Positions 10,699 to 55,330 are shown, counted from the stretch's first letter. The stretch: 64,000 nucleotides of DNA from an uncultured Candidatus Binatia bacterium (GCA_965243735.1 CBDEVZ010000008.1:3995180-4059179); one strand, 5' to 3'. The notes: generated by a model not told the origin, from the sequence alone. Numbers and translations: made by a program.

Positions 10699-11449
10699 AA
10701 AATTCCCACTGTGCATGCACTCGACAAGCATCTTTACTCAAGTTCTTGATCTGTAATTTTCTCTCACCTCCACCGTCAAAGTACAGACTGAAAATGATCT
10801 GGCCGTCCTCATTGCGAACATGACAGTAGCCGGGCTTTGGAAACTGTTTGCTGCCTAGTTTCATTTCCAACTGACCGCTATTGGCGAGCCTGAGGATATC
10901 TATCGGGATTTCAACAAGTTCATATTTCCAGCGCGGGGCCTTTCTGACAGCCCGGAGACTCAGTATCTTCTCATAGCGCTCCAGATGGTTGAGAAACTGG
11001 ATACGCAACCCTTCAAGGTCTCTTGGGTCATCGCCCCAATCTCCTCTCCCCAATTCCATGAATTTGCTGATCCATAAGACGTTTTCCTTAATATTTTTAT
11101 CCGCCTGCGTTTTCAGTGATAATTGGACCCCATCAACGTTAGCGTCATGGCCTGGATTGCCTTTTGGGGCGAGTTCCGCCTCATGGCCACTCATTTTCAG
11201 GACATGGACGAGAACGTATTCAAACTTATCTTTACTGAATGGTTCTGACGAGAAACTATGATGAACCCGCAGCGCATCTCCGAAGTTTTGTAGGATGGTT
11301 TCATCGAACAAATCACTCCCATTTAGGATAAATCTGTGATCGGCCGAGAAAACAGAGACCGCACGCTGAATCCAGTGGAGTTGGCCGGCGGTCAATTCTG
11401 GGATTGAGCGTACCAAGGATTCTATAAGCCGTCGTTTATCGTTATTCAT
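10682..11449 (-). CDS. Putative cognate Type II restriction endonuclease (no recognised family)
   Basis: 255-aa ORF convergent with the methyltransferase and overlapping its 3' end by 17 bp. Low-GC composition. No identifiable family. Assignment rests on context only. Confidence 0.4.
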   Translation of the reverse strand: MNNDKRRLIESLVRSIPELTAGQLHWIQRAVSVFSADHRFILNGSDLFDETILQNFGDALRVHHSFSSEPFSKDKFEYVLVHVLKMSGHEAELAPKGNPGHDANVDGVQLSLKTQADKNIKENVLWISKFMELGRGDWGDDPRDLEGLRIQFLNHLERYEKILSLRAVRKAPRWKYELVEIPIDILRLANSGQLEMKLGSKQFPKPGYCHVRNEDGQIIFSLYFDGGGERKLQIKNLSKDACRVHAQWEFFIPQE

Positions 11450-11489
11450 GCTTTTTCAGAGCTACCCATCAGAGAGAATTGGCTCGTGT

Positions 11490-11858
11490 TCACGCCGGGC
11501 CGTTGCGCAGAATCTGCTTGCGTTCTAACTCTTGTACCTGCTCTGGCGCATAGCCCAGCCATTGGGGCAGGATTTCCCTATTATGCTCGCCCAGTGTCGG
11601 GGTTTGCAGCTCGAAGGTCTGAAAGTCACTGACCAGGATGTAGCGCGGGCGACCGCGCTCGGGCAGGACGTCAAAATAGTCCCCGGCTTTCACGCTCCAG
11701 GCAGTAACTGGAACAACCTGGATCACGGGAACTCGCTCGTTGTATGTGTCGTTGGTGACGATGATACAGGGGCGAATCCTGCCCGTCTCCGAACCTTTCG
11801 TCGGATCAAGATTCACATCAATAACCGTCCCTCGCTTCAACGGGCTCACTTTGGCCAC
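11490..11858 (-). CDS. mazF: Type II toxin, MazF/PemK family endoribonuclease
   Basis: RGTVIDVNLDPTKGSETGRIRPCIIVTNDTYNERVPVIQVVPVT matches the PemK/MazF fold signature. Confidence 0.85.
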   Translation of the reverse strand: MAKVSPLKRGTVIDVNLDPTKGSETGRIRPCIIVTNDTYNERVPVIQVVPVTAWSVKAGDYFDVLPERGRPRYILVSDFQTFELQTPTLGEHNREILPQWLGYAPEQVQELERKQILRNGPA

Positions 11859-12202: not shown

Positions 12203-15144
12203 TTAGGAGAAGCCGACGCTGACCCCGACGAACCAGTAGCGGCCCAGGGCGTCGTACAGGCCGGGGAAGGTGTTGCCGTTGCCGGCGATGGACGGCCCGG
12301 CCGCATTGCCGGCCAGCGGCGGCGCCTTGTCGAACAGGTTGTTCACGCCGACCCGGATGCTGGTGTAGTCGTTGTAATGCCAGATCGCGGCCAGATCGAA
12401 GTAGTGCCGCGCTCCGAGATCGACCTGGGTGGAGTTGAGGTCTTCGACGCCACTGATGTAGCGCCACATGACGCTCGGCCGCAGGCCCCACGGCGTCAGC
12501 CAGGTGGCGCGCAAATTGTTTCGAATATCCGGGGTCGGAAAGCCGCAGGTCGCCCCCCAGTTGCCATTGCAGTCAACCTTGCGCGCCCCTTCCAGCTCCT
12601 GCTGGTCCCAGGTGGCGGTGATGGACAGGATATCGCTCAGGCGCAGACTCCCCCAGCGGCCGATATCAAGCTCATAGCTGGCGGTCATGTCGTAGCCCTG
12701 CACCTCCTCGATGGCCAGGTTGTCCAGCAGGGATACGATGTGGCCGCTGTTATCGAGGTCGGAGCCCAGCCACAGGTCACCGCTCCGGCCGCGTCGGACC
12801 TTGGCGCACTGCGAGGCGTTGCCGTCCAGACATTCGTTGAGGATGAACTCCGGGGTCAGGGTGCTGATGCCTTTGCTGATCTCGATGGAATAGTAGTCGA
12901 AGCTGAAGTCGAGGCCGTCGAGAAAGCCGGGCGTCCACACCAGTCCGAAAGAGTAGGTGTCGGATTCCTCGGGCGCCAGGCCCGGGTTGCCGCCCTGCAG
13001 AAAGTTGTACTGGGCGGCCGGTGAATTTTCGATGTTGCCGAACTGCGCGGCGGTCACCCCGCTACGGGCGCATTGCTCAAAGCTGCGGCCCTCGGCCGTC
13101 CTGCCGTCGGTGACCGGCCCGGCGCAGGGGTCGGCGTTCATCTCGAACAGGTTGAAGCCCTGCGGCAGAAAGCGCTCCCGCACCTGCGGGCCGCGAATCG
13201 CCCGCTGGAAACTGGCCCGCAGCCTGAGGTCGGGATGGAGCGCCCAGCCGGCGCGGACGCCAAAGGTATGGGTGTGCTCACCGTAGTCGTAGTCGGAATA
13301 GCGATAGCCGCCGTCCAGCCGCAGTTCCTCCGCAAAGCGGACGCCGTCGATCAGCGGAATGCCGGCTTCGAGGAAAAACTCCGTCACGTCGGACCCCCCG
13401 CTGACGGGGTGGCTGGCGCCACCCTGGCCGGCCCCGTCACCGCTGCGGTAGGCCTGGTTGGGAGTGAACTTGAGGTTGTCGTCACGGTATTCGCCGCCCA
13501 GGACAAGGTCCAGCCCGGTGGCGGCAAGCGGCGATCTGAGGCCGTAGCGACCGAGATTGCCGGCGATATAGCCCGACACCACAGTCTGATCGGTAGCCCC
13601 ACGGGCAGACAGGGGCAGGCTCAGGTAGTTGACCATGTCCTGGGTCACCGCACCCTCACGAAAGATGTTCCAGGGGACGCAACCGGGATCGGAACCGTCC
13701 AGCACCGAGCGACACACGACCTGCCCGCTAGCCGGATCTCTGACCGCGTCCAGCGCCCGCCTGATGCGGGTGATCGACAGGTCGTTCAAATACGAGTTCT
13801 GCATGCGAACCTCAGAGTACTGGTAGTACAGGTCGTAACGCCAATTCTCGCTGAGGTCGCCGCGTAGCCCGAATACCCCCCGGTAAGAGGTGTGGCGCAG
13901 GTCGTTTTGCCGGCTGCCGCCTCGACGTTGCGACGACCGATAAAAACGTGCTGGCTGTCATCCCGCGTCAGACCGTAGGCGCCGCACAGGGCGTCAAACT
14001 GTTGCCGGGACAGGAAGGCGTTGCCGCAGTTCAGGGTGTTGGTCACAAAGAAGGCGCCCGAGGGCGCGATCTGGGCTACCGAGCGATTGTCCATGAACAT
14101 GAACTCGGCGTAGGTCTCAACCCGGTCGTGGAGGTCGTAGTGGGCAAACAGGCCGGCGGTCCAGCGTCGGTCGGGACGCTGAAAATAGTTCGACGGCCCG
14201 TAGTTGAACAGGGTCCCTTCGCGGGGCACGAAGCGGTCGCCCTCGACCTTGTAGTCAAAGCTGTCCAGACCCTGACTTCGCAGCACGCCGAAGTCGGCAA
14301 ACGTGCCCTGGGGCTGGGTCGCCGAGCCAGAGCACTCGGAGAGGTCGTTGCTCAGGGCGCACGAACTGTAATCGCGGTCACCCTGGAGCACCGGATCGAT
14401 ATCGCGGTAGGTGCCGTAGACTGTGACGTTGCCGCGGTCCCGGCCCAGGTTGCGGCCCGCGATCAGCGACACATTCGAGATATCACCATCCCATGTTGAA
14501 CCATCGGCGACCTCATAGCCGGCGTCGCGGACAATCCGCTGCCACCGGTCACTGCCGTTGTCGTGCTGGTACTGGCTGAACTGATAGTCGAGCTTGATGC
14601 CCTCAAAGTCGTCGCGCATCAGGAAGTTGACCACCCCGGCGATGGCGTCCGAGCCATAGGTGGCCGAGGAGCCGCCGGTCAGCACCTCAACGCTCTCGAT
14701 CAGCGCGGCCGGGATCTGGTTGATATCGGCGCCGACTCCGCCTTGCAGCGGCGAGCCGGCCGGCAGACGCCGACCGTTGACCAGCACCAGGGTGCGCTCT
14801 GCGCCCAGGTTGCGCAGATTCAGGGTCGCGGTCCCAGTCGCCCCGTTCGACTGGCTGGCGTTCTGGGTGGAGTACAGCTGGGGCAGGTTACGCAGCATGT
14901 CCTCGACCCGGACGGTGCCCAGCAAGGCCAGGTCTTCAGCCTCAACCTGGATGACCGGGCTGGAGCTGAACAGGTTGGTCTGCTGAATGCGCGAGCCGGT
15001 CACCACGACCGCTTCGAGCTGCTGCGGCTCTTCGCTACCCCGAGCCTCCGGTGGCTCGGCGTCCTGGGCAAGAGCGGTCGCTGCTACAATCAGGAGGAAC
15101 GCCAGCGCAATCCCTGTCCACGTCTTTCTTCTCAGCATGGGCAC
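12203..15144 (-). pseudogene. TonB-dependent outer-membrane receptor, split by an apparent 1-bp deletion near 13911
   Basis: N-terminal ORF 13786-15144 holds the signal peptide and plug domain. C-terminal ORF 12203-13804 holds the barrel and ends ...RYWFVGVSVGFS. Against the intact paralog (GTCGAGAGCGGCAAC), this copy reads GTCGAG-GCGGCAGC. Shifting frame by one base restores GSRQNDLRHTSYRGVFGLRGDL, which matches the paralog's GNRKDYLHHTSYRGVFGLRGEL. Confidence 0.65.
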
Positions 15145-15344: not shown

Positions 15345-18300
15345 TCAGGAGAGGGCCACGCTCACCCCGACAAACCAGTAGCGGCCCAGGGCGTCGTACA
15401 GGCCGGGGAAGGTGTTGCCGCCTCGGCCGGACTCGCCAACAATGGGCGGTTCCTTGTCAAACAGGTTGCGGATGCCAACCCGCAGGCTGGCATACTCGGT
15501 GACCTGCCAGACCGCAGAAAAGTCGAAATAGTGGCGGTCATCGACCGGAACCGGGCGGTCCGGGTCGGGGTCAGTGCTGGTGCTGATGTAGCGCCACAGC
15601 AGACTCGGCTGTAAGCCCCAGGGACTCAGCCAGGTGGCGCGCAGGATGTTGCGGATCCTCGGGGTTGGCGTGCCGCACGAGTAGCCCCAGCTGCCGGCGC
15701 AGGCGATCTTGGGAATATCCGCAGTTGCCTTCAGATCGTAGGTCTCAAGATACGACAGCAGATTCCTGAAGTTGAGGCTGCCGTAGCGGCCAAGACTGAG
15801 CACATAGTCGATGGCAAAGTCGTAGCCGCGGACCTCGGCGACGGCCAGGTTCTCCAGCACGGCCTCGACATGGCCGGTCGTCTCGACCCGGTCGGAAGGC
15901 AGCCACAGGTCGCCGCTCGGTCCGCGCCTGACCTTGTCACACTGGGAGAGTTTGCCGTCCAGGCAGCGGTTCAGCACAAGCTCCGGTGACAGGGCGCCGA
16001 CGCCGCCCTTGAGTTCGATGTCGAAGTAATCCACGGACAAGCTCAGGCCGTCGAGAAAACCGGGCGTCCAGGTCAGGCCGACCGAATAGGTGTCCGCGTC
16101 TTCGGGAGCCAAGCCCGGGTTACCTCCGATCAGGAAGTTGTACTGACCGGCCGGCGAGTCGGGAATGTGGCCGAACTGCTCGGCCGTCACCCCGCTGCGG
16201 GCGCACTCCTCAAAGCTGCGGCCGGCTGCGGTTTTGCCGTCAACCACCTCGCCGGCGCACGGGTCGGAGGTCATGTAGATCAGGCCCAGCCGCTGGGGCA
16301 GGAACTGTTCGCGGATACTCGGCGCGCGCACCGCCCGCTGGTAGCTGCCGCGCAGGCTGATGTCGTGGTTGATGGCCCAGCCGACCCGGACGCCGTAGGT
16401 ATCGGTCTGGACGCCGTACCACGAGGAGCGATAACCGCCGTTGACGATCAGCTGGCGGATGAACGGCACGTCCTCGATGAGCGGGATACCGGTCTCAATG
16501 AAAAAGGCCGGCACGTCGAAGCCGCCGCTGAGGGGCTGCGGCGCACCGCCCACGCCGGTGCCGTCCCCGCTCTGGGTGATCCGGTCGGGCCGGTATTTGA
16601 GATTCTCCTCGCGCCACTCGCCGCCCAGGGCGATGTCGATGCCATTGGTGGCAAACGGCGATACCAGGCCGTAGCGGCCGAGATTTCCGGCCAGATAGCC
16701 CGACACCACGGTCTGGTCGGTGGTGCCGCGCGTCCGGCGCGTCTGGGTCAGGTAGTCGGTCATCCGGCTGGTGACCGCGCCGTCTTCAAAGATGTTCCAG
16801 GCCACACAGTCGGGGTCGGTGCCGGTCAGCACCGAGCGGCACACGATGTTGCCGGTCGCCGGGTCGCGAACCGCATCCAGAGCCCGGTTCATCCGGCTGG
16901 TCGACAGGCCGTTGACGAACTTGCTCCAGGCGCGGACCGCCGCGTACTGGTAGTACACATTGTAGCGCCAGCTATCGCCGAGTTCGCCCCGCAGTCCGAA
17001 CACGCCACGGTAGGAGGTGTGATGCAGGTAATCCTTGCGGTTGCCGCTCTCGACGCTGCGCCGGCCGATGTAGACGTTCTGGATATCGTCCTCGGTCAAG
17101 CCGTACTGGCCGCACAGAGCCTGAAACTGCTGCTCGGACAGGAAGGCGTTGCCGCAGCGCAGGTGGCGCTGCCTGAAGAACGAGCCCGAGGGCGCGATCT
17201 GGGCGGTGGTGCGGTCGTCCATGAACATCAGTTCGGTGTAGGCTTCGACGTATTTGTGCAGGTCGTAGTGGGCAAACGCGCCGGCGGTCCAGCGCGTATC
17301 CGGGCGCTGAAAGTGGTTGGGGGGCGCGTAGTTGTAGAAGCGGCCGTCCCAGGGTGCGAACTCACCCCCCTCGACCTGGTAGAAGAACGGCCCGCCCGGG
17401 TCGTGGCCGGGCGCGACCTGACGGGCGCCGAAGTCGGCAAACAGGCCCTTGGGAATCGTGGCCGAACCCACGCACCGATCAAGCTCGGGGGTCAGATCGC
17501 AGCTGCTGTGATCGCGGTCGCCCAGAAACACCTTTCCGCCGTCGCGCCAGGTCGCGTAGGCGGTGATGTTGCCCCGGTCGCCCAGGTTTTTGCCCAGGAT
17601 GACCGACACGTTGGACAGCTCGCCGTCGGCGGTCGCGTCGTCGGCAACCTCATAGCCCTGGTCGGAGATCAGCCGCTTGAGGCGGCGGTTGTCGTTGTCG
17701 TGCTGGTGCTGGCTGAACTGGTAATCGACCTTGATGCCCTCGAAATCGTCGATCAGGATGAAGTTGATCACGCCGGCGACCGCGTCCGAGCCATAGGTCA
17801 CCGAGGAGCCGCCGGTCAGCACGTCGACGCGCTTGAGCAGGGCGCCGGGTATCTGGTTGATGTCCTCGTTGCCGGTCCCGCCCCAGGGTGAGCCGGCCGG
17901 CATGCGACGGCCGTTAATCAGCACCAGGGTGCGCGACGAGCCCAGGTGGCGCAGGTTGAGGGTGGCGATGCCGGTGGCGCCGTTGGCGCTGGAGGCGTCC
18001 TGACCGCCGGTAAACACCGAGGGCAGGGAGCGGACCAGCTCTTCGACCCGAACCGTACCCTGGTGCAGGATTTCGTCGGCGTCAATGCTGACGATCGGGC
18101 CGGTCTCGACCTGATCGACCGTCTGCCGCAGGCGCGTGCCGGTCACGACCAAGGCTTCCAGGGCTTCCAACTGCTGCGGCTCTTGTTCGGCCTCGGCGGC
18201 CTGTTGGTCGGCCTCGGCCTGTTGCGCCTCTTGTTCGGTCTGTTGGCCGGCCTCGGCCGGCGGCGGTTCCGTCTCCGCCTGCTGCGCGCCGGCCGGCACG

Positions 18301-18380
18301 ACACCGGCCAGGGCCAGCGCCACTGCCACAGCCACCAGCCTGGCTCCAGGTATGAGAGCAGCGTTTCTCAACATGGCCAT
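15345..18380 (-). CDS. TonB-dependent outer-membrane receptor (intact), with Q/E/A-rich low-complexity N-terminal extension
   Basis: 1011 aa. Signal peptide, plug motifs (VVTGTRL...) and a C-terminal barrel ending YWFVGVSVALS. An EAQQAEADQQAAEAEQEPQQLEALEA region is encoded by CTCGGCCTGTTG-type repeats at 18180-18260. Confidence 0.9.
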   Translation of the reverse strand: MAMLRNAALIPGARLVAVAVALALAGVVPAGAQQAETEPPPAEAGQQTEQEAQQAEADQQAAEAEQEPQQLEALEALVVTGTRLRQTVDQVETGPIVSIDADEILHQGTVRVEELVRSLPSVFTGGQDASSANGATGIATLNLRHLGSSRTLVLINGRRMPAGSPWGGTGNEDINQIPGALLKRVDVLTGGSSVTYGSDAVAGVINFILIDDFEGIKVDYQFSQHQHDNDNRRLKRLISDQGYEVADDATADGELSNVSVILGKNLGDRGNITAYATWRDGGKVFLGDRDHSSCDLTPELDRCVGSATIPKGLFADFGARQVAPGHDPGGPFFYQVEGGEFAPWDGRFYNYAPPNHFQRPDTRWTAGAFAHYDLHKYVEAYTELMFMDDRTTAQIAPSGSFFRQRHLRCGNAFLSEQQFQALCGQYGLTEDDIQNVYIGRRSVESGNRKDYLHHTSYRGVFGLRGELGDSWRYNVYYQYAAVRAWSKFVNGLSTSRMNRALDAVRDPATGNIVCRSVLTGTDPDCVAWNIFEDGAVTSRMTDYLTQTRRTRGTTDQTVVSGYLAGNLGRYGLVSPFATNGIDIALGGEWREENLKYRPDRITQSGDGTGVGGAPQPLSGGFDVPAFFIETGIPLIEDVPFIRQLIVNGGYRSSWYGVQTDTYGVRVGWAINHDISLRGSYQRAVRAPSIREQFLPQRLGLIYMTSDPCAGEVVDGKTAAGRSFEECARSGVTAEQFGHIPDSPAGQYNFLIGGNPGLAPEDADTYSVGLTWTPGFLDGLSLSVDYFDIELKGGVGALSPELVLNRCLDGKLSQCDKVRRGPSGDLWLPSDRVETTGHVEAVLENLAVAEVRGYDFAIDYVLSLGRYGSLNFRNLLSYLETYDLKATADIPKIACAGSWGYSCGTPTPRIRNILRATWLSPWGLQPSLLWRYISTSTDPDPDRPVPVDDRHYFDFSAVWQVTEYASLRVGIRNLFDKEPPIVGESGRGGNTFPGLYDALGRYWFVGVSVALS

Positions 18381-19099: not shown

Positions 19100-20239
19100 T
19101 CACCGGAACTCGGCGACCGACAGCACCAGCCGCACCAGGTCCGCCTGCCGGGAGAGGGACAGCTTGTGGTAGATCCGCTTCAGGTGCCAATAGACGGTGC
19201 CCTCCGTGCGCCCCGTCGTCACGGCCATGTCGCGCACGGTCCGACCCTCGGCCAGCCAAACCGCGATGTGGCTCTCTGACGGGGTGAGGTCCAGGGTGCG
19301 GGCCACAAGGTCAGGATCCAGGCGGGGCTGATAGTTCGGTTCAACCAGCAGCACGAGCGCGGCGACCCACCGTGCCCCAAAGTCCAGTTGGAGCCCGCCC
19401 ACGGGGGTGACGTGGACCACGAAGGCCGGCAACAGGGACGCGCGGCGCAGCAGCATCGAGCCGCTGGCGGGGGTGCCGGCAGTCGGCAGGGCGCGCGCCA
19501 CCAGCCGCGCCAACTGGTCCTGCTCGGTCGGCACGGTGGCCCGCAACAGCCCCTCCGGGTCTGACACTCCATCGCCGCGCCGCAGGAGGTCCCGGGCGCG
19601 GTCATTGGCCTCGATGACCCGCCCCTGACGGTCCAACTGGATGACGCCCACCCGGGTGTTGTTGAGCAGGGCGGTCGCGGAGGCGTCGAAGGCGTCGGCG
19701 CGGACCAGCGCCTGGCGGACACGAACAAACTGGCGCAGATGGGGCAGCAGTCCTCTGATCAGCGCCACCTGCGGAGACCGCCAACCGTCCGGGGCGAGAG
19801 GCTCATAGAGGCCCCAGACCGTGCTGGAGCCGTCTGGCTCGATCAGGCGCACGTTCAGGCAATTCTGGCTGTTGTAGCGGGGCAGGATCTCGTTGTACAT
19901 CGGCGAGGTCTTCAGCTCCTCCTCGGTGTACAGGGCCGTGTTATGCACGAGCTGGCTGTCCGCCAGATGCCGGTAGCGCGGGACGCGTTCGTCCAGGGAA
20001 AAGTAGTGTTCGAAGTACTCGCGCTCCCAGTCGGTGAGGCGCTGCCCCCGGTGGTACACTCCCACGAAGCTACAGCCCCCCAGGGCCTCGTCCTGCAGGC
20101 CTCCGCCGACCGCCAGGACATGGCCCCACAGGCCGCAGGCCTCATCAATCAGGGCCGAGGCCACCGGCCACCGGCCGTCGTAGAGCATGGCGTCGTACAG
20201 CGCGGTAACGATCCGGTCAAAAGCATCTTGGTCACTCAT
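19100..20239 (-). CDS. LuxR-family transcriptional regulator with ~300-aa N-terminal domain of unknown function (paralog 1)
   Basis: C-terminal LuxR HTH (LTPSESHIAVWLAEGRTVRDMAVTTGRTEGTVYWHLKRIYHKL). Start MSDQDAFDRIV is preceded by GGAGG-N7. Roughly 75% identical to the paralog at 53333-54478. Confidence 0.8.
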   Translation of the reverse strand: MSDQDAFDRIVTALYDAMLYDGRWPVASALIDEACGLWGHVLAVGGGLQDEALGGCSFVGVYHRGQRLTDWEREYFEHYFSLDERVPRYRHLADSQLVHNTALYTEEELKTSPMYNEILPRYNSQNCLNVRLIEPDGSSTVWGLYEPLAPDGWRSPQVALIRGLLPHLRQFVRVRQALVRADAFDASATALLNNTRVGVIQLDRQGRVIEANDRARDLLRRGDGVSDPEGLLRATVPTEQDQLARLVARALPTAGTPASGSMLLRRASLLPAFVVHVTPVGGLQLDFGARWVAALVLLVEPNYQPRLDPDLVARTLDLTPSESHIAVWLAEGRTVRDMAVTTGRTEGTVYWHLKRIYHKLSLSRQADLVRLVLSVAEFR

Positions 20240-20385
20240 CACACAACCTCCTCTCTCTCCATCTCTCTCCATTGGCCTTGCCACGCTGCCCACGCGGCCG
20301 CGCCCGCCGGACCACAGGGTCCGTCACTCGGAACGGCGCGGGGAGCAGACATGAACAACATTAGCGCCCCCCTATACCTCATCTC

Positions 20386-20605
20386 TGCACATTTTGTTCC
20401 CCCAAAATTGGTGGATAAATAATAAATTTTAGGGGACTCAGCAAAAAAATTGGGGGGAATTTCAGACGTGTGGCCGGGAATCGTCAGCCCTCCAAAATTG
20501 GAGGGTTTGCAGTTCTATATAGATCATAAAAAGTTATATAAATCGAGATTTTCAGAGACCTACCAAAATTGGAGGCTTGACGGTTCTGTCCATCTTTCAC
20601 AGATT
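20386..20605. promoter_or_regulatory. AT-rich divergent control region. It has the conserved module CACATTTTGTTCCCCCAAAATTGGTGGA...GGGGGGAATTT, four AAAATTGG boxes, and a TTGACGG-N17-CAGATT promoter
   Basis: The 560-bp intergenic region is ~40% GC in a ~65% GC background. The module recurs at 53141-53197 (reverse complement), 55331-55400 and 61612-61680. The TTGACGGTTC...TCTTTCACA promoter recurs at 26601-26647. Confidence 0.5.
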
Positions 20606-20852
20606 GCTACCTAAGTGCAGTTGCAATCAATTATCAATTGAATCACTGAGGCTAAAAATTTTTGCACCCAGCGCCCCGCAGGACACGCGTCGTGTCGGGC
20701 TGGGACTCGAACGAACTCGAAGTGACCTGGAGCAATTCATAGAGGAGGGAGGAAGGAGTGAGGAATGAAGACTTAATCAACGGCACCTAGAGGAACGAAG
20801 ACAAGTGGAAATGACCAAAAACCATTCCAAGAACGCAAAAGGAGAGCACGGA

Positions 20853-22487
20853 ATGCATCGACCGACCCGACTCCGACCCCTGACCCTGACCTTGGCACTG
20901 GGAGCGCTGGTAGCCCTGTTCGGCGCTGGCGCAGCACACGCAACCGACCCCGAAGCCTGTTCCGCTGAGCCCGCGGATGAGGTCCCCTCGAACCGCGTCG
21001 CCCTCTTCGATGTCTACTGGAACAATAGTGACGATAGAAATGACCCGAATTCCAAAACCCTGGTCAACAATCCCTGCCCGCCGACAGTCAGCCATACAGC
21101 AGGTGGTACTGACCCGATTACCGGGCTACCGACACCACCAACCACCACCCGCACCGCCTCCGACATCCACATCGACCACACCATCATCCATATTCCCGAG
21201 TCGGCCAAGCGGACGGTAACCAATAGTAACAGCGAAGATTACGGCGGAGGCTTCTACAATTTCTTGCGCCGTGGGCCGGATGAAGAAAACGGAGATGCCT
21301 CATACGCACCTTCAGCCGAGGTGTATATTGTCCCCGCCTGCGAGAAGACGGCCACGAACCCGTCCCTCTGCCTGGGTGCTTCCGCCGGCCTGCTGACCCC
21401 CGGAGACTGGGCCCCGGACCCCGCGAACCGGAATGAGGGGACCAAGATCCAGTATGAGTTCGAGGCCATTCGGGAACCGGGACACGCCACGCAAGGCTGG
21501 GGCAATGTCTTTGTCTTCAAGATAGAAGAGGACCCAGAAATCCAAGCCCAGAGACCGAGGATAATCTGGCGCACCGACGATGCCGACGACAACGAGTGGA
21601 AGGTCGCCCCCGGTGCCTACGACTATGCCTACTGGGCCTTTACCGAACCGGGTACCTACGTGTTTCACGTCCACGCCAAAGGCCACCCCAATAAGCAGCG
21701 TACCGGCGGTCCCCTCACCACTGCCGACACCGTGACCAGCGAGGTACGGCGGTACACCTTCCAAGTGGGCAATTTGCCCGTGAACCATGAACCGCTCTTT
21801 AATGTTACGCGGAAGGTGACGGAAAACGCCCCCGCCGGGACCAACGTGGGAGAACCCATATTGGTGAAAGACCTGGACGCCGACACCCTGTGTTTCGCCC
21901 TGGACGGACTCGGCGCCCATGAGAACTTTACCATTAACGGCGCTGCGAACGCCGAGAAATGCGGCACGCTGACTGCCGTGAACAGATCCGGGAACGGCCA
22001 GATGAGGGCCCAGATTCAGGTCAAGGCGGGCGCGGATCTGGACTATGAGAGCATCGACTTTTACGACATCAAGTTGTTGGTGAGCGATGGCCAGGACCAT
22101 GAGGGCAATGTCGACCTGTCCACCATCGACGACAGCGTCATAGTGTCCATCAGCCTGAGAGATGACACGTCAGATAATCCGGAAGGACCCAGCAGGAATC
22201 CCTTCTCGGTGACGGCTGAGTACCCATCACCATCAGCAGGAGAGGCAGGGTTTGACTTGGTCGCGACGTGGAATGGCCCCGCAGCAGGTGCGACATTCAG
22301 GTGGTACCGCCTTCCCCATGGCGACGAGGGGTTTCAGGCTGGTACGGACAAAAGGATCACCGTGCGACCCGGCCATACGGGAGCGTGGGAATACTGGGCA
22401 CGGGTGACCTATCGGAATGGCGGTGTCACAAGGACGCGGGAATCCAATCGAGTGAGAGTCGTCTGGCCCTGGCCGTCATCTGAGTAA
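20853..22487 (+). CDS. Secreted cadherin-domain protein
   Basis: Signal peptide MHRPTRLRPLTLTLALGALVALFGAGAAHA. GGAGAG RBS. Cadherin-like repeat (NHEPLFNVTRKVTENAPAGTNVGEPILVKDLDADTL...DYESIDFYDIKLLVSDG). Confidence 0.8.
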   Translation: MHRPTRLRPLTLTLALGALVALFGAGAAHATDPEACSAEPADEVPSNRVALFDVYWNNSDDRNDPNSKTLVNNPCPPTVSHTAGGTDPITGLPTPPTTTRTASDIHIDHTIIHIPESAKRTVTNSNSEDYGGGFYNFLRRGPDEENGDASYAPSAEVYIVPACEKTATNPSLCLGASAGLLTPGDWAPDPANRNEGTKIQYEFEAIREPGHATQGWGNVFVFKIEEDPEIQAQRPRIIWRTDDADDNEWKVAPGAYDYAYWAFTEPGTYVFHVHAKGHPNKQRTGGPLTTADTVTSEVRRYTFQVGNLPVNHEPLFNVTRKVTENAPAGTNVGEPILVKDLDADTLCFALDGLGAHENFTINGAANAEKCGTLTAVNRSGNGQMRAQIQVKAGADLDYESIDFYDIKLLVSDGQDHEGNVDLSTIDDSVIVSISLRDDTSDNPEGPSRNPFSVTAEYPSPSAGEAGFDLVATWNGPAAGATFRWYRLPHGDEGFQAGTDKRITVRPGHTGAWEYWARVTYRNGGVTRTRESNRVRVVWPWPSSE

Positions 22488-22757: not shown

Positions 22758-25700
22758 GTGGTTATATTGCGTCGCTTGTTCATCTCTCTGCTGACCCTTG
22801 TCGGTGTTGCCCTGAGCGGGGCGGTTGTCGGCCCTGGCACGGCTCATGCGCAAGGGAGTGACATTGACTTGGCTGTCAGCATAGTCCTTCAGGACAACGT
22901 ACAAAATCCAACCATTACCGTTGCGAATTATGGGTCTGACAACGCGTACCATGTACGGGTTGTGATGAAGGTTGACGGCATTACGCTCGGTACTACGCTC
23001 GGCCGCCCATCGCCAGGCACCGTTGCGCTCCACCCAACTGATTCCACCACTACACTGATTTGGAGCATTCCCCGGATGCCGGGGAATAGAACCTCATACA
23101 AGTATCTATTACGCACGACAGCTTCGACTTCGATAACAGTGGTTCAATATACAGCTACAGTCCATAGTGGCGTTTTCCTTGAGCCCGAGGCATTGCGGCA
23201 CAACAACCACGCCGAAGTCTGGCAGCTGAGAATCTCTGGGACTCGGACCGAGACGCCGGACCCTACATACGCTATCGAGGCGACAGTTGACAATCGTTTT
23301 CCGCAGGCCCAAGGGAGCGTGACCTTTACGCTGGTTGCCAGAAACTTGGCAACGGGAGGCACTGTGGGTCATCTTTCAGATGCTCGGGTAGACGTTCTTC
23401 TGCCTGCGGGGGGCTTGACCTATACATCGCATACCGCTCCAACAGGCACCAGCTATGATTCCAACACCGGGATATGGACCATTGGCGATTGGCGACAGAC
23501 TACCGCCACCCACTCGCTAACGCTGACGGCGACGCTGGCCGCCGACGCCGTGCTGAATGAGCAATGTGTGACCGCGGAAATATCGGCCAAGCCACCGGAA
23601 CCAATTGACGAGACGGTGAACAACCGGAGTACGGTTTGTTTGGGGGTGCTCAACGAGCCCGTGCTGTTCCAGAGCGAGCAGGTTAACCTGTTCACCCCCT
23701 ACCCATGCGTTGGTAATACTACCTCCCCATGCAATAGCCAAGACACAGTGGAAATGCTCGCACTCAAAGCAGAAGGAGAGCAATATATTCTGCCTCAGGC
23801 CACTACCGTTCAAGTATTGGACCCCGAGGGGCGCATCGTTGACGGCGCGAATATCGCGTGGAGGATTCCCTCTAGTGACACTCTCACTTTGAAACCCTCT
23901 ATAGATAATAGCTTGCTCTCTTCTTCTGATTGGACCAAGTGGCTGTGGAAAATAGCAGCAGTGCAACTGCCGACTGGGGGGCACCTCTCCATCGGCCCAG
24001 CAACAAGTACCGCCTTCGCCTATGTACACACTGGGACCAAGGCCCAGCATCCGCCTGGCGGCCTCACAGCCCTGCCCGCGGCCCTGAAGACAGCAGTACC
24101 GGTATGGATCAAATTCGAGGCCCTGGGAACTTACATCGTAAACTTCACTCAGGCAACCGCCCACGCCACCGCTAGTGGCGACTGCGACACCGACGGTGAC
24201 AACACCAACGACGCCCTCTGCGCCACCGAGGCCTACACCTTCCATGTCGGCCCGGTGGCTGAGTTGGCCGTGCGCGACGACGGTCCCAGCCCGGACGCCA
24301 CCTCCAGCCAGCGTGCCTTCACCATCATGGCCCTCAATACCGGCCCGGACTCCGCCCCCGCGGCCAAGGTGACCGTGGACCTGCAAGGCGCCAGTGTCAG
24401 TCCGCCCATTGCCAGCCAGGGCACCTACCGCAGCGGCGAGTGGTTCCTAGGCGAGTTGCAGACCACAGACTACTACCAGACCCTTGGCCAAACCGCCGGC
24501 CCGACCCTGACCTTCATCACCACCGACCCCGTGGATGCCCCCATCACCGCCACCATCACCAACACCCAGGACTACCAGGTGTGCATCGACAGCAGCGGCA
24601 ACGACCTCAGCCACACCACCCAAGCCACCTGCGAAGCCGACACCACCAACGGCGGCAGTTGGCACACCGCCAAGTACTACGACTACATTTCCACCAACAA
24701 CACCGCCACCGTGACCGCGCAGACGGGAACAGCCCCCCCACAGGCGGACATCACCGTCGAGTGGACCGCGCCGGCGGATGTCACCGTGTCCCGCTACCAG
24801 GTCTGGCGCCAGGGCAGCCCCTGGAAGCTGATCGCGGAGGTGCCGACGGGCCAGACCAGTTACACAGACTCCACTGCCGAACCCGGCCGGGCGTATCTTT
24901 ACATGGTCCGGGCCATGGACGCCCAGGGCATCCCTGTGTCGTCAGAGACACTGGTGGCCGCACCACCCCAGACCGGCGGCCAGGGCGGCCAAGACGGTTC
25001 GGGCGGTTCGACCCGTCCTCCCCCGACCGACCACCACGGCAACAGTCCGGCCACCGCCACTCCCCTCGCCCCCACCGCCCGCGTCGGTGGCCTGCTGCAC
25101 TACGGCGACCAGGATTACTTTCGCCTCGTCCTGCCCCACACCGGCCTGCTGTACGTCGAGACCACCGGCTGGAGCAACACCGTCGGCACCGTCTGGCAAG
25201 GCGGCGTCGAACTGGGCAGCGCCGAACTGGGCGGGCGACTGTACAACTTCAAGCTCGGCGTGCCCGTCCAGCCCGGCCCGGTCGTCATCCGGGTGACTGA
25301 GCGGTCGCCGACCGCCTTCGGGACCTACCGCTTGTACACGCGCTTCATCGCCGGGGCGGTCGAGCAACCGCGCCCCATCACCGTGCAGAACGGCCTGGGT
25401 ATGGTAGCCGGCTGGCTGTGTAGTGAAGACCCCGTCGTCCTGGAAATCGACGGCCTGCCCTATCACCCGGCCCCGCAGCCCGCCCCGGTTCCTCCCCCAC
25501 TCCCCCACGTGGTCGGAACCGGCGGCTCCGGGCTGCCGCCCCGGGCGGTTGATCCCCACGAGCTGTGCGACGACACGGCCACCGGCTTTGGCCTGCCCGT
25601 CAACTGGAACCTGCTGGGCGACGGCCAGCACACCCTCATCGCCTACCTGGACGGCATCGAATTCGCCCGCACCCTCGTAGACGTGACGACCCTGGGCGAG

Positions 25701-26291
25701 GAGTTCGTCCACGACGCCCACGGCACCTGTAGCGTGGCCGACTTTCCGCTGCCCGACCACAGCGTCAGCCTGGTGTGGCAGGAAGCCGGCCAGCACTTCG
25801 CCCTGAGCGACGGCCAGCCCCCGCCGTCCGTCGGCGCCACCAGCGCCAGCGATGTGCTCGGCCGGCTGGAAACCCCCGCGCCCAGCTCCTTTCAGAGCGG
25901 CCGGGGCAGCATCAGCGGCTGGGTGTGCGACGCCGAGGCCGTCAGTGTCGAGATCAACGGCACGCCGTATCCGGTCGCCTACGGCACGGCGCGGTTGGAC
26001 GTGGCGGCGGTGTGTGAGACCCCGGCGCCCGGCTTTGGGCTGAGCCTCGACTGGAATCGGCTCGGGCCGGGCGACCACGAGGTCGTGGCCCTGGCCGACG
26101 GGGCGGAGTTCGGGCGGGCCACAGTGCGGGTGACGACCCTGGGCGCGGCGTTCGCGCGCGACGCCGAATCGGCGTTTATACGGGGGCTGGCCGGGGAATG
26201 CGTGGTGGAGGACTTTCCAGCGCCCGGCGAGGCCGTCCATCTGGAGTGGCAGGAGACCACCCAGAACTTCGTCATTACCGGCGTCGAGTAA
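22758..26291 (+). CDS. Giant secreted modular protein: DUF11 repeats - FN3 - PPC-like domain - tandem ~115-aa Cys-containing C-terminal domains
   Basis: Signal peptide (RRLFISLLTLVGVALSGAVVGPGTAHA). Start is uncertain, either GTG 22758 or TTG 22767. DUF11-like (G.W.IGDW...TLT). FN3. PPC motif HYGDQDYFRLVL. Two C-terminal repeats (SGWLC/SGWVC...GFGL..NWN/DWN.LG.G.H..VAL.DG.EF.R..V.VTTLG..F...G.C.V.DFP..G..V.L.WQE..QNF). Confidence 0.8.
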   Translation: MVILRRLFISLLTLVGVALSGAVVGPGTAHAQGSDIDLAVSIVLQDNVQNPTITVANYGSDNAYHVRVVMKVDGITLGTTLGRPSPGTVALHPTDSTTTLIWSIPRMPGNRTSYKYLLRTTASTSITVVQYTATVHSGVFLEPEALRHNNHAEVWQLRISGTRTETPDPTYAIEATVDNRFPQAQGSVTFTLVARNLATGGTVGHLSDARVDVLLPAGGLTYTSHTAPTGTSYDSNTGIWTIGDWRQTTATHSLTLTATLAADAVLNEQCVTAEISAKPPEPIDETVNNRSTVCLGVLNEPVLFQSEQVNLFTPYPCVGNTTSPCNSQDTVEMLALKAEGEQYILPQATTVQVLDPEGRIVDGANIAWRIPSSDTLTLKPSIDNSLLSSSDWTKWLWKIAAVQLPTGGHLSIGPATSTAFAYVHTGTKAQHPPGGLTALPAALKTAVPVWIKFEALGTYIVNFTQATAHATASGDCDTDGDNTNDALCATEAYTFHVGPVAELAVRDDGPSPDATSSQRAFTIMALNTGPDSAPAAKVTVDLQGASVSPPIASQGTYRSGEWFLGELQTTDYYQTLGQTAGPTLTFITTDPVDAPITATITNTQDYQVCIDSSGNDLSHTTQATCEADTTNGGSWHTAKYYDYISTNNTATVTAQTGTAPPQADITVEWTAPADVTVSRYQVWRQGSPWKLIAEVPTGQTSYTDSTAEPGRAYLYMVRAMDAQGIPVSSETLVAAPPQTGGQGGQDGSGGSTRPPPTDHHGNSPATATPLAPTARVGGLLHYGDQDYFRLVLPHTGLLYVETTGWSNTVGTVWQGGVELGSAELGGRLYNFKLGVPVQPGPVVIRVTERSPTAFGTYRLYTRFIAGAVEQPRPITVQNGLGMVAGWLCSEDPVVLEIDGLPYHPAPQPAPVPPPLPHVVGTGGSGLPPRAVDPHELCDDTATGFGLPVNWNLLGDGQHTLIAYLDGIEFARTLVDVTTLGEEFVHDAHGTCSVADFPLPDHSVSLVWQEAGQHFALSDGQPPPSVGATSASDVLGRLETPAPSSFQSGRGSISGWVCDAEAVSVEINGTPYPVAYGTARLDVAAVCETPAPGFGLSLDWNRLGPGDHEVVALADGAEFGRATVRVTTLGAAFARDAESAFIRGLAGECVVEDFPAPGEAVHLEWQETTQNFVITGVE

Positions 26292-26600
26292 GACGCCAAC
26301 GTATCCCCTCCACGGAGGGGGGGCCGACCCGGGGACCCCATCCTCCCCCCCGGCCCGCTGCCCTTTCCCCTCCGGGCAGCGGGAGCCCGGCCCATTCTCC
26401 CCCGGGCGGGGCGGGTGCCACAGCAGCCCGCTCCGAGAGGGGCTGCTGTGGCGGGAAAATCCCCCTCACTCCCCCTTTGTCAACTGCACATGGCGTCATA
26501 CAACGCCGCGAGGCTGCGCTCAAAGGCGTCTCGGTCACTCACCACATAGCCTCTTCGCTCCACCGCCCCGCCAAACGGCCCGTGTCCGCAGGATCGACTG

Positions 26601-26647
26601 CCCCCTAAAATTGGAGGCTTGACGGTTCCATCGGTCTTTCACAAATT
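26601..26647 (+). promoter_or_regulatory. Conserved promoter CCCCCTAAAATTGGAGGCTTGACGG-N17-CAAATT upstream of the NHL-repeat gene
   Basis: Same AAAATTGGAGGCTTGACGGTTC...TCTTTCACA architecture as 20561-20605. Followed by a ~160-nt conserved leader. Confidence 0.45.
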
Positions 26648-26804
26648 AAATGAGATAAAGTTGCAATTACATATTAATGTCAATTAAGTCCTTACCTGTC
26701 CAGTGGAGGCCCTGACTGCGTACTGAGGCCCGCGGTCCCCGAACCGAGCGCTCGGTAAGACCAACGTCATACTGGGTGAAGGTGGAGGACCGGAGGAGCA
26801 AGAG

Positions 26805-29800
26805 GTGTGCAGTAGCGTCCGACCCATTCCCCCGCATCCGAGGCGTCATCCGTTCCGCTTCCCTATTGCGCTGAGTCTGATCCTGGCCGCACTGCTGGGC
26901 GGTACGGCAGGAGCGCAGCAACCTTCTTCATTGATACGCTGGCGGGCCCAAGCTGGCCCTATCCTGACTATCCCAATAGCGTGGCGGTCGCCAGCGACGG
27001 CACCATCTACCTGGCCGACCGCGACAGCCATACCGTCTTACGGGTAGAAACGGACGGGAGCCTCAGTGTCCTGGCGGGAACGGGATTCGCCGGCTACAGC
27101 GGCGACGGCGGAGCAGCAGCGGCAGCCCAACTCAACACGCCCACCGGCGTGGCGGTGACCGCCGATGACGCCACCGTGTACATTGCCGACCGAGCCAACA
27201 ACCGCATCCGCAAGGTCGATGTGGCCACCCGGATCATCACCACGTTCGCCGGGACGGGAAGCGCCGGCTTCAACGGCGACGGCGGGGCAGCAACGGCAGC
27301 CGTCTTGAACCTGCCCATTGGCGTGGCGGTGGACGGCGACGGCAACGTGTACATTGCCGACCTGAACAACCACCGCATCCGGAAAGTGACGGTAGCTACC
27401 GGAGTTATCGACACGATTGCGGGCTCGGGGGCTTACGGCTCCGGGCAGGGCGGCTACGGAGGGGATAACGGGCCGGCAACGGCGGCGCGGCTCAACAACC
27501 CCGTCGGTGTGGCGGTGGACGGCGACGGCAATGTGTACATCGGGGACTGGAGCAACAACCGCGTGCGCAAGGTAGATGTCAGTATGGACCCTCCGACCAT
27601 CACCACGATTGCGGGAAACGGGACCTCCGGTTTCAGCGGTGACGATGGCCAGGCGACTGCGGCTCAGCTTGCGAACCCCTATGGTGTAGCGGTGGCCAGC
27701 GATGGGACGGTGTACATCACCGATTCGACCAACCAGCGTGTGCGCAAGGTGGCCACCGACGGGGTCATTACCACGGTTGCGGGCTCGGGAGCGAGCAGCG
27801 GCGACATCTACGAGGACGGCATCCAGGCAACCGCAGCGCGGCTTGTGAATCCCCGCGACGTGGCGCTGGACAGCAGTGGCAATTTCTATATTGCTATGCA
27901 GGGTCAAAACGACCAAGGCGCCATCCGCAAGGTTGATACCAGCGGGATCATCACCACGGTCGCGGGGGGCTGGACCCGCGGCTTCAGCGGTGACGGCGGG
28001 CCGGCGAAGGCAGCCCGGCTTAATGGAGCCACTGACGTGGCGGTCGACAGCAGCGGCAACGTGTACATTGCCGATTACACCAACAACCGCATCCGCAAGG
28101 TCGATACCAGCGGGATTATCACCACATTTGCGTCTACGGGGATCACGAGCCCCCGTGGCCTGGCGGTCGACAGCAGCGACAACGTGTACGTTGCTCAGAA
28201 CCACCGTATCCTGAAGATTGATGGCAGCACGGCTCCCCCGACCATCACCACAGTCGCCGGAACGGGGAGCAGCGGCTTCAGCGGCGACGGCGGAGCGGCA
28301 ACCTCGGCCCAGCTCGACTCTCCCTATGGCGTGGCAATCGACAGCGCCGGCAACATCTACATCGCCGATGGGGGGAATCATCGTGTGCGGAAGGTCGACG
28401 TCAGTGCGGACCCGCCGACCATCGCTACGTTCGCGGGCTCGGGGAGCCATAGTTCCGGAGGGTTCAGCGGCGACGGCGGAGCGGCAACCTCGGCCCGGCT
28501 CGACTCTCCCTATGGCGTGGCAATCGACAGTGACGGCAACGTGTACATTGCCTGTTATTTCAATCACCGGGTCCGCAAGGTCGACGTCAGTGCGGACCCG
28601 CCGACCATCGCTACATTCGCGGGCTCGGGGAGCCATAATTCCGGTGGCTTCGGCGGCGACGGCGGGGCGGCGACCGCAGCCCGGCTTAACAGCCCCTACG
28701 GCGTAGCGGTGGCCAGCGATGGGACGGTGTACATCGCCGATGCGAACAACCGCCGCATCCGGGCCGTGGCGACCGACGGGACGATTAACACAGTGGCGGG
28801 AACGGGGACGGGGATCACCTTACCAGGCGTACCCGACGGCAGCCTGGCGACCGCTGCCACTGTCTATTTTCCCAGAAAAGTCGCAGTCTCCAGCACCGGC
28901 GCTGTGTACATCGCCTGGAGTAACCTGGTGAGCGTGTTGACGACAAACGGACCGCCACAGGCGCGTGACGCCAGCCCAATGACGCCAACAGGGACGCAGG
29001 CTATCATCGCTCTACCGGTATCCGACCCGAACGGTGATCCGATGACCGTAACGGTGAGCACGCCGCCAACAAACGGCACGACGACGGTCTCCGGCACTAC
29101 CATCTACTATACGCCGAACGCGGGCTTTACCGGCGTTGACACCTTCGCGTACACGGTCTCCGACGGCCAGGGCGGCAGCGCCACGGCAACGATCAGAGTC
29201 AGGGTGGGAGCCGAAGCCGGGGCCCCGCCCCCGCCCCCCGCGGACGGCGCAGGCGGCGCAGGCGGGGCGGGCCGGCGCCAGCCAACCGACCACCACGGCA
29301 ATAGCCCGGCCACCGCCACTCCGCTGGCTCCCACCGCCCGCGCCGGCGGCCTGCTGCACTACGGCGACCAGGATTACTTTCGCCTCGTCCTGCCCCACGC
29401 CGGCCTGCTGTACGTCGAGACCACCGGCTGGAGCAACACCGTCGGCACCGTCTGGCAAGGCGGCGTCGAACTCGGCAGCGCCGAACTGGGCGGACGGCTG
29501 TACAACTTCAAGCTCGGCGTGCCCGTCCAGCCCGGCCCGGTCGTCATCCGAGTGACCGAGCGGTCGCGAACCGCCTTCGGGACCTACCGCTTGTACACGC
29601 GCTATCTCCCTGGGTCGATTGACCACCCGCGCCCCCTCACCGTCCAGAACGGCCTGGGCATGGTAGCCGGCTGGCTGTGCAGCGCCGACCCCGTCGTGCT
29701 GGAGATCGACGGCCAGCCCTACTACCCGGCCCCGCTGCCCGCGCCGGTCTCCCCGCCGTCCGACCTCGTGATCAGCCTCGGCGGCTCCGGGCTGCCGCCC

Positions 29801-30550: not shown

Positions 30551-30827
30551 GGGTGCCGCGGGCGTCTTCCCTCCCGGGCCGGCTACTGCAAAAAGGCACC
30601 CACCCCGGCCCTCCAGGCCACCCCTCCGAGGAGGGGAACTGCCCTCATCCCCGCCTTGGAGGGGCGATACAAATGAGATACAGTTGCAATTACATATTAA
30701 TGTCAACTAAGTCCTCGCCTGTCCGGTGGAGGTCCTGATTGCGTACTGAGGCCCGCGGTCCCCGAACCGAGCGCTCGGTAAGACCAACGTCATACTGGGT
30801 GGAGGTAGAGGACCGGAGGAGCAAGAG

Positions 30828-35092: not shown

Positions 35093-35184
35093 GTGTAGTA
35101 GGTCGGATTAGCGGAGCGTAATCCGACACGCACGGGATGTCAGGTTACGCCTCCGGCTAACCTGACCTACACGGCTGCACCTAA
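35093..35184. repeat. Intergenic repeat family 3 (nested palindromes CGGATTAGCGGAGCGTAATCCG and CAGGTTACGCCTCCGGCTAACCTG)
   Basis: A reverse-complement copy lies at 48201-48299. A partial copy lies at 61955-61995. Confidence 0.5.
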
Positions 35185-35227
35185 TAGTCAATTGCTCTAG
35201 GCAAGCGCTGAAAAAAGGAGGACGAGC

Positions 35228-48193: not shown

Positions 48194-48200
48194 CGCGTTT

Positions 48201-48299
48201 CACCCTTAGGTGTAGCCGTGTAGGTCAGGTTAGCCGGAGGCGTAACCTGACATCCCGTACGTGTCGGATTACGCTCCGCTAATCCGACCTACCACACCC
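48201..48299. repeat. Intergenic repeat family 3 (reverse-complement copy)
   Basis: Reverse complement of 35093-35184 with the same nested palindromes. Confidence 0.5.
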
Positions 48300-48313
48300 T
48301 ATCGGGAAACGCG

Positions 48314-55257: not shown

Positions 55258-55330
55258 CGGGGCAGTCCTTTCACATCAGGGGCTACAGCCCACCGTGGGG
55301 CATGCCAGCGCACCCCTATACCCCATCCGC

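Follow-up and report, generated by a model that had tools for sequence, protein, structure and literature searches.

A repeated dyad-bearing module upstream of luxR, tetR and protease genes in an uncultured Candidatus Binatia bacterium: a putative LuxR-type operator and promoter

A 64,000-nucleotide stretch of DNA from an uncultured, sponge-associated Candidatus Binatia bacterium (GCA_965243735.1 CBDEVZ010000008.1:3995180-4059179; hereafter the window, meaning the whole stretch) carries four copies of a ~90-bp intergenic module, placed upstream of two luxR genes, a tetR gene and an operon encoding a subtilase protease. The interpretation that we favour, with a confidence only slightly better than even, is that the module is an activator-type promoter and operator cassette bound by LuxR-family paralogs, which would autoregulate their own genes and control tetR, the protease operon and genes for exoproteins. 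Through the module, the luxR and tetR genes, the protease operon and the exoprotein genes nearby probably belong to a single regulatory circuit; the assignment of the -10 element, the binding protein and the sign of regulation are predictions made from the sequence.

A core motif upstream of luxR, tetR and protease genes

A motif scan of the 64-kb window placed the core TTGTTCCCCYAAAATTGGT at 20394-20412 (+), 53173-53191 (-), 55338-55356 (+) and 61618-61636 (+), with no further match in the window at three or fewer mismatches, compared with 0.02 matches expected by chance (100 dinucleotide shuffles); the four copies claimed in a preliminary description of this DNA are thus borne out. All four are intergenic, and the spans that the description gave for them have GC contents of 0.35, 0.40, 0.44 and 0.43 against 0.635 for the window, in agreement with the AT-rich islands that it had noted. 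Its assignment of the neighbouring genes (luxR1, luxR2, tetR and a subtilase operon) is correct by Pfam, as follows.

19100-20239 (-): luxR1, 379 aa, with a C-terminal GerE-type helix-turn-helix (HTH) domain by Pfam and the recognition helix TVYWHLKRIYHKL
53333-54478 (+): luxR2, 381 aa, with a GerE-type HTH, 79% identical to luxR1 and with the same recognition helix
54652-55257 (-): tetR, served by module 3, with TetR_N and TetR_C_41 domains
55755-61486 (-): the operon of module 4, comprising a 194-aa signal-peptide open reading frame (ORF) at 60902-61486 and then the subtilase gene at 55755-60884, whose product is an S8 protease of 1709 aa with P-domain, FN3, cadherin and PPC domains

The copies had been described as three direct and one reversed, which holds in window coordinates but not relative to the nearest gene start, where all four share one orientation: with the core written as it was in that description, the gene lies on its 5' side and transcription runs away from the core (4/4), at core-to-ATG distances of 154, 143, 81 and 133 nt for copies 1 to 4. 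Copies 1 and 2 belong to an inverted paralogous duplication that includes luxR1, luxR2 and their upstream regions (repeats I1, I2, I5 and I6), and they therefore represent one evolutionary event rather than two independent ones; the same inverted duplication accounts for the reversed orientation of copy 2 in the window. A second element said to accompany every core is present at copies 1 and 3, but it is degenerate at copy 4 and reduced to GAATCCCCC at copy 2.

20452-20462: second element of copy 1, GGGGGGAATTT
53145-53153: reduced form at copy 2, GAATCCCCC
55374-55385: second element of copy 3, GGGGGGAATTTT
61655-61666: degenerate form at copy 4, GAGAGAATTTTT

Anatomy of the module

In all four copies the core is the gene-proximal half of an 18-bp inverted repeat with 7-2-7 geometry, TCCACCAA-TT-TTGGGGGA, as would be expected if a dimeric regulator binds there. 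Read towards the gene, the consensus is TC(C/T/A)ACCAATTTT(G/A)GGGGAACAA...ATGG(A/G)GTAT(A/G)G, followed by 50-125 nt and the start codon, and the gene-proximal arm of the dyad continues into the invariant GGGGAACAA(AATG). The module holds no -35 hexamer, and the distance from the dyad centre to the first base of a TATAGG/TATGGG hexamer is exactly 30 nt. Its distal part is AT-rich and includes the GGGGGAA half-site in inverted form; a further dyad, 41-42 nt upstream of the main one, is seen in several modules. Identity among the copies is 78-84% over the 45-nt unit from the dyad to the -10-like hexamer and 57-72% over the whole 90 nt. The parts of each module are listed below, the hexamers being putative -10 elements.

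Module 1, upstream of luxR1
20398-20415 (-): dyad TCCACCAA-TT-TTGGGGGA, read towards luxR1, centred between 20406 and 20407
20371-20376 (-): -10-like hexamer TATAGG, 30 nt from the dyad centre
20416-20462 (-): distal part, with a 24-bp class-specific insertion and the element AAATTCCCCCC (the GGGGGGAATTT of the preliminary description); its rightward reading resembles GGGACT-N17/18-GAATTT

Module 2, upstream of luxR2
53170-53187 (+): dyad TCTACCAA-TT-TTGGGGGA
53209-53214 (+): -10-like hexamer TATGGA, 30 nt from the centre; luxR2 ATG at 53333
53127-53146 (+): upstream second box TCCACTAAATTTTGTAGTGA, ~42 nt from the main dyad

Module 3, upstream of tetR
55342-55359 (-): dyad TCAACCAA-TT-TTGGGGGA, read towards tetR
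55315-55320 (-): -10-like hexamer TATAGG, 30 nt from the centre
55360-55397 (-): distal part, with GAAAATTCCCCCC and a TTTTCCGAGAAAA dyad; its rightward reading is TTGACT-N17-GAATTT

Module 4, upstream of the protease operon
61622-61639 (-): dyad TCCACCAA-TT-TTAGGGGA, read towards the operon
61595-61600 (-): -10-like hexamer TATGGG, 30 nt from the centre; ATG of the 194-aa ORF at 61486
61640-61680 (-): distal part, with AAAAATTCTCTC and a TTTTCCGGGAAAA dyad

With TATAGG taken as the -10, transcription from module 1 is predicted to start near 20364, which would put the dyad centre at -42.5 and leave a leader of ~125 nt to the luxR1 ATG at 20239, while the leader predicted for module 3 is ~51 nt to the tetR ATG at 55257. 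The second box of module 2 has as its counterpart in relatives a clean 7-2-7 dyad, CCACCAA-AA-TTTGTGG. Sigma-70 scans found no canonical promoter in the four module regions, whereas the tRNA-Ala promoter of the same window, by sequence reading, is canonical (TTGCAA-N17-TAGAGT); housekeeping promoters of this organism thus look canonical and the module promoters activator-dependent.

Conservation of the module in related genomes

The exact 19-mer core was sought in 185,579 species, each represented by one genome. Related matches were confined to four sites in one metagenome-assembled genome (MAG), Candidatus Binatota CO36406bin_19 (WTHE01), and five other loci were unrelated. The four WTHE01 sites are at the orthologous positions of the four window copies, on syntenic contigs with 80-96% identity, and this MAG also holds a fifth, variant copy before an extra tetR gene. 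Module 1 is 93.6% identical to its WTHE01 counterpart, and the luxR1 coding sequence 80.2%. The same 19-mer in metagenome contigs of JGI gave 24 loci, all of low GC and with unrelated flanks, which we regard as chance matches.

LuxR1 has more than 2000 homologues, many of them on closed contigs of ~5 Mb, and the DNA around ten of these (loci L034-L043) was added to the comparison. Full modules then number 19, four from the window and 15 from six related genomes, and fall into six classes: luxR1-type, luxR2-type, a luxR2/luxR3-type variant B', tetR1-type, protease/tetR2-type and the luxR copy of L037. All 19 are intergenic and point towards the start of an adjacent luxR, tetR or protease operon; copies scattered at random or lying inside genes, which would have spoken for a generic repeat, did not appear in the window or at the loci compared in the six relatives. 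In 16 of the 19, exactly 30 nt separate the dyad centre from the first T of the hexamer TA(T/A)(A/G)nn, and counted over two lineages the 30-nt spacing is constant in 21 copies, with three copies at 25. These three are the class B' modules (L009 119, L035 9847 and L039 9847), which share a 5-nt deletion between the dyad and TATGGG. Dyad symmetry, a uniform orientation and this spacing all support the suggestion that the repeated block is a shared operator and promoter. In L039 the dyad extends to a perfect 13-2-13 palindrome, TATAGTCCACCAA-TT-TTGGTGGACTATA, at 11817-11844; three tandem 52-bp units at 11340-11480 come before it, each with the dyad and a TTGTATAAT motif, and units and palindrome together precede an 11,739-aa ORF downstream of a luxR gene.

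A non-functional dispersed repeat, either a miniature inverted-repeat transposable element (MITE) or a repetitive extragenic palindrome (REP), a structured RNA or a small ORF might also produce a ~90-bp block before unrelated genes, and one frame does read HFVPPKLVD in 4/4 copies, but we consider all of these highly improbable. The orientation relative to the gene is fixed in 19/19 modules, neither terminal repeats nor target-site duplications were seen, and the only related matches to the exact core are the four syntenic sites of WTHE01, the metagenome matches being due to chance, which argues against dispersal. A structured RNA was rejected because the RNAalifold consensus reaches only -2.5 kcal/mol without compensatory pairs and Rfam gave no matches, and the small ORF because both core substitutions of module 4 are non-synonymous and the stop positions differ. 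An invertible promoter was likewise set aside, since the GGGGGAA/TTCCCCC half-sites are only 30-55 bp apart and no recombinase was seen among the scanned ORFs.

The far side of the module raises the alternative that it is a bidirectional promoter whose main output, through TTGACT-N17-GAATTT, is the mRNA of a divergent exoprotein gene or a small RNA. This would be compatible with the explanation that we favour, and as an account of the module's main role it seems to us quite unlikely. A pair resembling -35 and -10 elements lies 28 nt from the centre and, by eye, is kept in modules 3 and 4 and in L009, L036 and L037; GAATTT resembles the -10 elements CAGATT/CAAATT of the exoprotein genes described below; and the far side faces a divergent tetR in L037 and a cadherin-like gene at module 1. 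Modules 2, 3 and 4, however, have no gene on the far side, the far-side regions of copies 2-4 share no similarity past the module, the spacer has a 3-nt deletion in L006, and the scan returned no sigma-70-like site. The loss of similarity beyond the module also led us to reject a small RNA or ORF common to the far sides. A sigma-54 promoter (GG-N10-GC) was rejected by inspection, as it fits module 1 only and the GC is lost in modules 3 and 4, L006 and L037.

Three observations concern the surroundings of these copies. In relatives (L009 ~2000-2640; L036 12073-12675), tetR1 is separated from the 3' end of the gene for the subtilase by a second tetR with its own variant module, and the corresponding position of the window (55400-55750) holds unrelated non-coding DNA. 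The protease-operon leader of the window contains a perfect palindrome, CTTTGCAAAG, at 61562-61571, and the same leader precedes the second tetR of relatives (L009 and L036). WTHE01 shares a highly conserved non-coding block that in the window occupies 61680-61810, with module 4 on one side and the tRNA-Ala gene (62078-62151, -) on the other; it gave no Rfam match and has no similarity to the other far-side regions.

The same dyad at putative exoprotein promoters

Dyads of the form CYAAWWTTGG number seven in the window against 0.21 expected, and all are intergenic once true start codons are used. Beyond the modules they include a stand-alone perfect dyad between luxR1 and the cadherin-like gene and two dyads at promoter-like sequences upstream of exoprotein genes.

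20488-20505 (+): stand-alone dyad CCCTCCAA-AA-TTGGAGGG (that is, CCCTCCAAAATTGGAGGG), conserved in L002, L034, L040 and L041
20559-20605 (+): cadherin-like gene promoter, with the dyad CCTACCAAAATTGGAGGC at 20559-20576, TTGACG at 20577-20582, a 17-nt spacer and CAGATT at 20600-20605; upstream of a 560-aa cadherin-like gene at 20805-22487
26601-26647 (+): NHL gene promoter, with the dyad CCCCCTAAAATTGGAGGC, TTGACG at 26619-26624, a 17-nt spacer and CAAATT at 26642-26647; upstream of an NHL-repeat gene at 26981-30550

The stand-alone dyad and those of the two exoprotein promoters lack the GGGGAACAA extension, and the latter two abut a good -35 hexamer, TTGACG, so that, taking CAGATT/CAAATT as the -10, the dyad centre is at -44.5; a dyad abutting TTGACG-N17-CA(G/A)ATT was also found in L034, L040 and L041. 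The preliminary description had proposed that the two loci belong to one regulon, and the occurrence of the same dyad at the -35 hexamers of the cadherin-like and NHL genes supports this: since the exoprotein locus shares the site, the luxR1/exoprotein and luxR2/tetR/protease loci would form a single regulon.

Further features of the exoprotein genes were noted. The 5' stub of a third luxR, reading VSDRDAFERSLAALYDA, was recognized at 26489-26545 (-) from repeat I9 and sequence reading; it adjoins the NHL dyad and promoter, and the region around it looks like a decayed divergent luxR/exoprotein cassette (compare 20240-20805). A 254-bp repeat, its copies 96% identical, spans leader and signal peptide in both the NHL gene (26648-26901) and an LRR-repeat gene (30671-30924); neither the dyad nor the -35 hexamer accompanies the LRR copy, whose gene may therefore be expressed by read-through from the NHL gene. 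A conserved element, AGTTGCAAT(C/T)A..TAT(C/T)AAT (20620-20646, 26661-26690 and 30684-30712; also L041), lies a short way downstream of the putative exoprotein starts and could be a second operator, perhaps for TetR. The exoproteins and the subtilase have in common a tandem C-terminal domain ending in ...WQExxQNFVITG (25300-26290, 29600-30550, 33250-34100 and 55760-56630), probably a common sorting or anchoring domain.

A proposed mechanism and the candidate binding proteins

Under the explanation that we favour, each ~90-bp cassette would drive the gene on the GGGGAACAA side of the core, and the LuxR-family paralogs encoded nearby, which have a GerE HTH, would bind the dyad as dimers, using it as their operator, with TCCACCAATTTTGGGGGA as the putative LuxR1/LuxR2 target sequence. 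If TATAGG is the -10, the dimer would be centred at -42.5, where it could replace the missing -35 contact and recruit RNA polymerase, and at the exoprotein genes it would abut the -35 hexamer at -44.5. The predicted outcome is positive autoregulation of luxR1 and luxR2, with tetR and the secreted-protein/subtilase operon dependent on LuxR for their expression, the cassette apparently having been copied in front of three unrelated gene families.

The LuxR proteins of the window are unlike those of quorum sensing. Searches against Pfam, NCBIfam and PDB matched only the C-terminal HTH and found no autoinducer-binding domain (PF03472), which is why we do not regard them as quorum-sensing LuxR; the match to RhlR/SdiA is limited to the last ~70 residues, and no luxI-type gene is present among the ~40 window ORFs scanned against Pfam. 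The N-terminal region of LuxR1, ~300 aa, is uncharacterised, its sole match being a weak, sub-threshold one to PAS_8.

Evidence on the binding protein comes from a second lineage. Loci L038, L042 and L043, whose LuxR proteins are 61-64% identical, have no CCACCAA module; instead, luxR and an adjacent TetR_C_41 gene carry an AT-rich module whose 7-2-7 dyad is CCCGTAA-WW-TTACGGG. In this lineage the 30-nt spacing to TATAGG, TATATA or TATACT is kept in 5/5 promoter-proximal dyads, and dyad pairs again occur 41 nt apart, whereas the spacer is otherwise unalignable with that of the CCACCAA lineage; the L043 hexamer, TATACT, is a good -10. The LuxR recognition helix differs as well, reading T(V/I)YWHxKRIYHKL in all members of the CCACCAA lineage and SIHWHL(R/Q)QIY(T/H)K(Q/L) in the CGTAA lineage. 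Because the LuxR helix co-varies with the dyad and the TetR helix does not, a LuxR-type protein is the favoured candidate; the preliminary description's proposal that the LuxR paralogs bind the module is to this extent supported, with TetR or a third factor as possible alternatives.

A TetR repressor acting over the -35 accounts for the data nearly as well, although we rate this reading as unlikely. The dyad would then be the operator of the TetR_C_41 protein, which would cover the -35 of its own gene, of luxR and of the protease operon and shut them off until released by a ligand, with LuxR among the targets. Autoregulation through a palindromic operator overlapping the promoter is common among TetR-family proteins, and here tetR carries the module in both lineages, its dyad changes with the lineage (L043 7264-7282), luxR and tetR adjoin in the window, L036, L037 and L043, and a repressor would cope better than an activator with the 5-nt spacing variant. 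On the other hand, the alpha-3 helices of TetR1 and TetR2 differ (THAALSYHF and TRGALYYHF) while the same dyad lies upstream of both, and the L043 TetR has a helix close to that of TetR2 (SRGTLYHHF) although the L043 dyad is different. Modules or dyads are also present at luxR loci without a tetR within 10 kb (L034, L035, L039, L040 and L041), promoters without a -35 hexamer point to a need for activation, and 7-2-7 geometry abutting the -35 is documented for GerE-type activators (PMC7419079).

The invariance of one arm raises a different alternative, namely that the module is the promoter of an alternative sigma factor of the extracytoplasmic function (ECF) type, with GGGGAAC as the -35 and (G)GTAT as the -10, and that the palindrome is incidental. 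ECF promoters typically combine an 'AAC' -35 with a short G/T-rich -10, those of CnrH being GGGGAAG / CGTATA. GGGGAACAA is invariant in 19/19 modules, and so, in the 16 copies whose spacing is 30 nt, is a GTA located 18 nt beyond it. We give this little credence because the bare dyad recurs without GGAAC before canonical -35 hexamers, the palindrome of L039 is a perfect 13-2-13 one, the spacing from the dyad to TATAnn persists without GGAAC in the distant lineage, the 5-nt deletion variants break the rigid spacer of an ECF promoter, and the window yielded no gene for a sigma or anti-sigma factor.

We caution that several points weigh against activation by a LuxR dimer. TATAGG and TATGGG lack the T at -7 that the housekeeping promoter has, and the 5 nt deleted in B' amount to half a helical turn, a shift that a class II activator of strict geometry should not accommodate. 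The GGGGAACAA arm and its extension are invariant while the distal arm varies, which a symmetric dimer alone does not explain and which points to a second contact overlapping the first (a partial -35 'ACA' or else a -35 of the ECF kind). The co-variation of helix and operator is confounded by phylogeny, with only two or three lineages, and the loci of relatives were fetched through LuxR homologues, so that part of their association with luxR was built in by this selection. In both lineages the dyad found at luxR also precedes TetR_C_41 genes, which keeps TetR a candidate binder, and a site overlapping the -35 would suit a repressor too.

Comparison with known systems

Among the closest parallels to the proposed LuxR-type activation are promoters of the NarL/NarP type. 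NarL, which has a GerE-type HTH, binds as a dimer to 7-2-7 inverted repeats, and a site at -44.5 abutting the -35 suffices for activation; the promoters ogt and yeaR-yoaG of Escherichia coli have a second site further upstream (PMC7419079). The exoprotein dyads abut TTGACG with predicted centres at -44.5, and an additional dyad lies 41-42 nt upstream of the main one in several modules. The systems differ in that the arm is CCACCAA here rather than TACYYMT, the regulators lack a receiver domain and so are not response regulators, having instead the ~300-aa N-terminus with a weak PAS-like match, and the dyads at the regulators' own promoters have predicted centres at -42.5 without a -35 hexamer; the binder here is also predicted from sequence.

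The lux/tra box of quorum-sensing LuxR/TraR is an 18-20-bp palindrome near -42.5 that overlaps the -35 of promoters dependent on a LuxR-family activator, and autoregulation and control of secreted factors are common in quorum-sensing LuxR systems. The regulators of the window differ in having no autoinducer-binding domain, no luxI-type gene among the window ORFs scanned and a box of unrelated sequence. HapR/LuxR(Vh) of Vibrio, which is of the TetR type, binds palindromes at its own gene and at protease genes; its site is 22 bp and AT-rich, as opposed to the GC-flanked 7-2-7 dyad described here, for which a GerE-type protein is the favoured binder.

A homologous promoter-sized block upstream of non-homologous luxR, tetR and secreted-protein/protease genes in one genome also recalls putative mobile promoters, defined by at least 80% identity over 50-100 nt (Matus-Garcia et al. 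2012; PMC3488235). Here the identity is 78-84% over the 45-nt unit and 57-72% over full modules; the position of the copies is conserved across species, so that they are not recent mobilisations.

Significance

Literature on this motif, on the regulation of these exoproteins or on any regulon of the phylum was searched for and none was found. The kind of feature is conventional, a palindromic regulator or activator site at a promoter, and the instance is newly described and lineage-specific; two aspects go beyond the conventional, namely the apparent re-use of one cassette before three unrelated gene families and the apparent re-coding of operator and helix together between lineages. The module offers a concrete candidate cis-regulatory code for an uncultured, host-associated phylum, and it would tie secreted proteins with eukaryotic-like repeats, which are thought to mediate the interaction of symbionts with sponges, to specific regulators. 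The paired change in operator half-site and recognition helix may be considered a small natural experiment in the evolution of GerE-type HTH specificity.

A broader interpretation, which we put forward tentatively as possible rather than probable, is that an expanded family of LuxR-HTH 'solo' regulators with an uncharacterised N-terminal sensor of ~300 aa, together with paired TetR regulators, forms a self-amplifying circuit that acts through a lineage-specific 7-2-7 box and turns on the exoproteins of sponge-associated Binatota in response to a cue from the host or the population. These would be the eukaryotic-like or adhesin-type proteins (cadherin-like, NHL, LRR, FN3/subtilase and the giant protein of 11.7 k aa), and the box would have been re-coded with the helix at least once, from CCACCAA to CCCGTAA. 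If this is true, the pairing of box and helix would lend itself, as a natural example, to deciphering the DNA-recognition code of these HTH proteins.

Other features of the window

Elsewhere in the window, a restriction-modification pair at 9811-11449, consisting of an N4/N6 DNA methylase and a SmaI-type endonuclease, occupies an island of ~50% GC. At 12203-15144 (-), a Plug ORF (13786-15144) and a barrel ORF (12203-13804) are the two pieces of a split TonB-dependent receptor, probably a paralog, disrupted by a frameshift, of the intact receptor at 15345-18380. Palindromic repeats of REP-like type in intergenic DNA (GTCGGATTAGCG...CGTAATCCGAC) pair 48261-48301 with 61963-62003 and 35093-35205 with 48185-48297, and similar ones are present in related loci.

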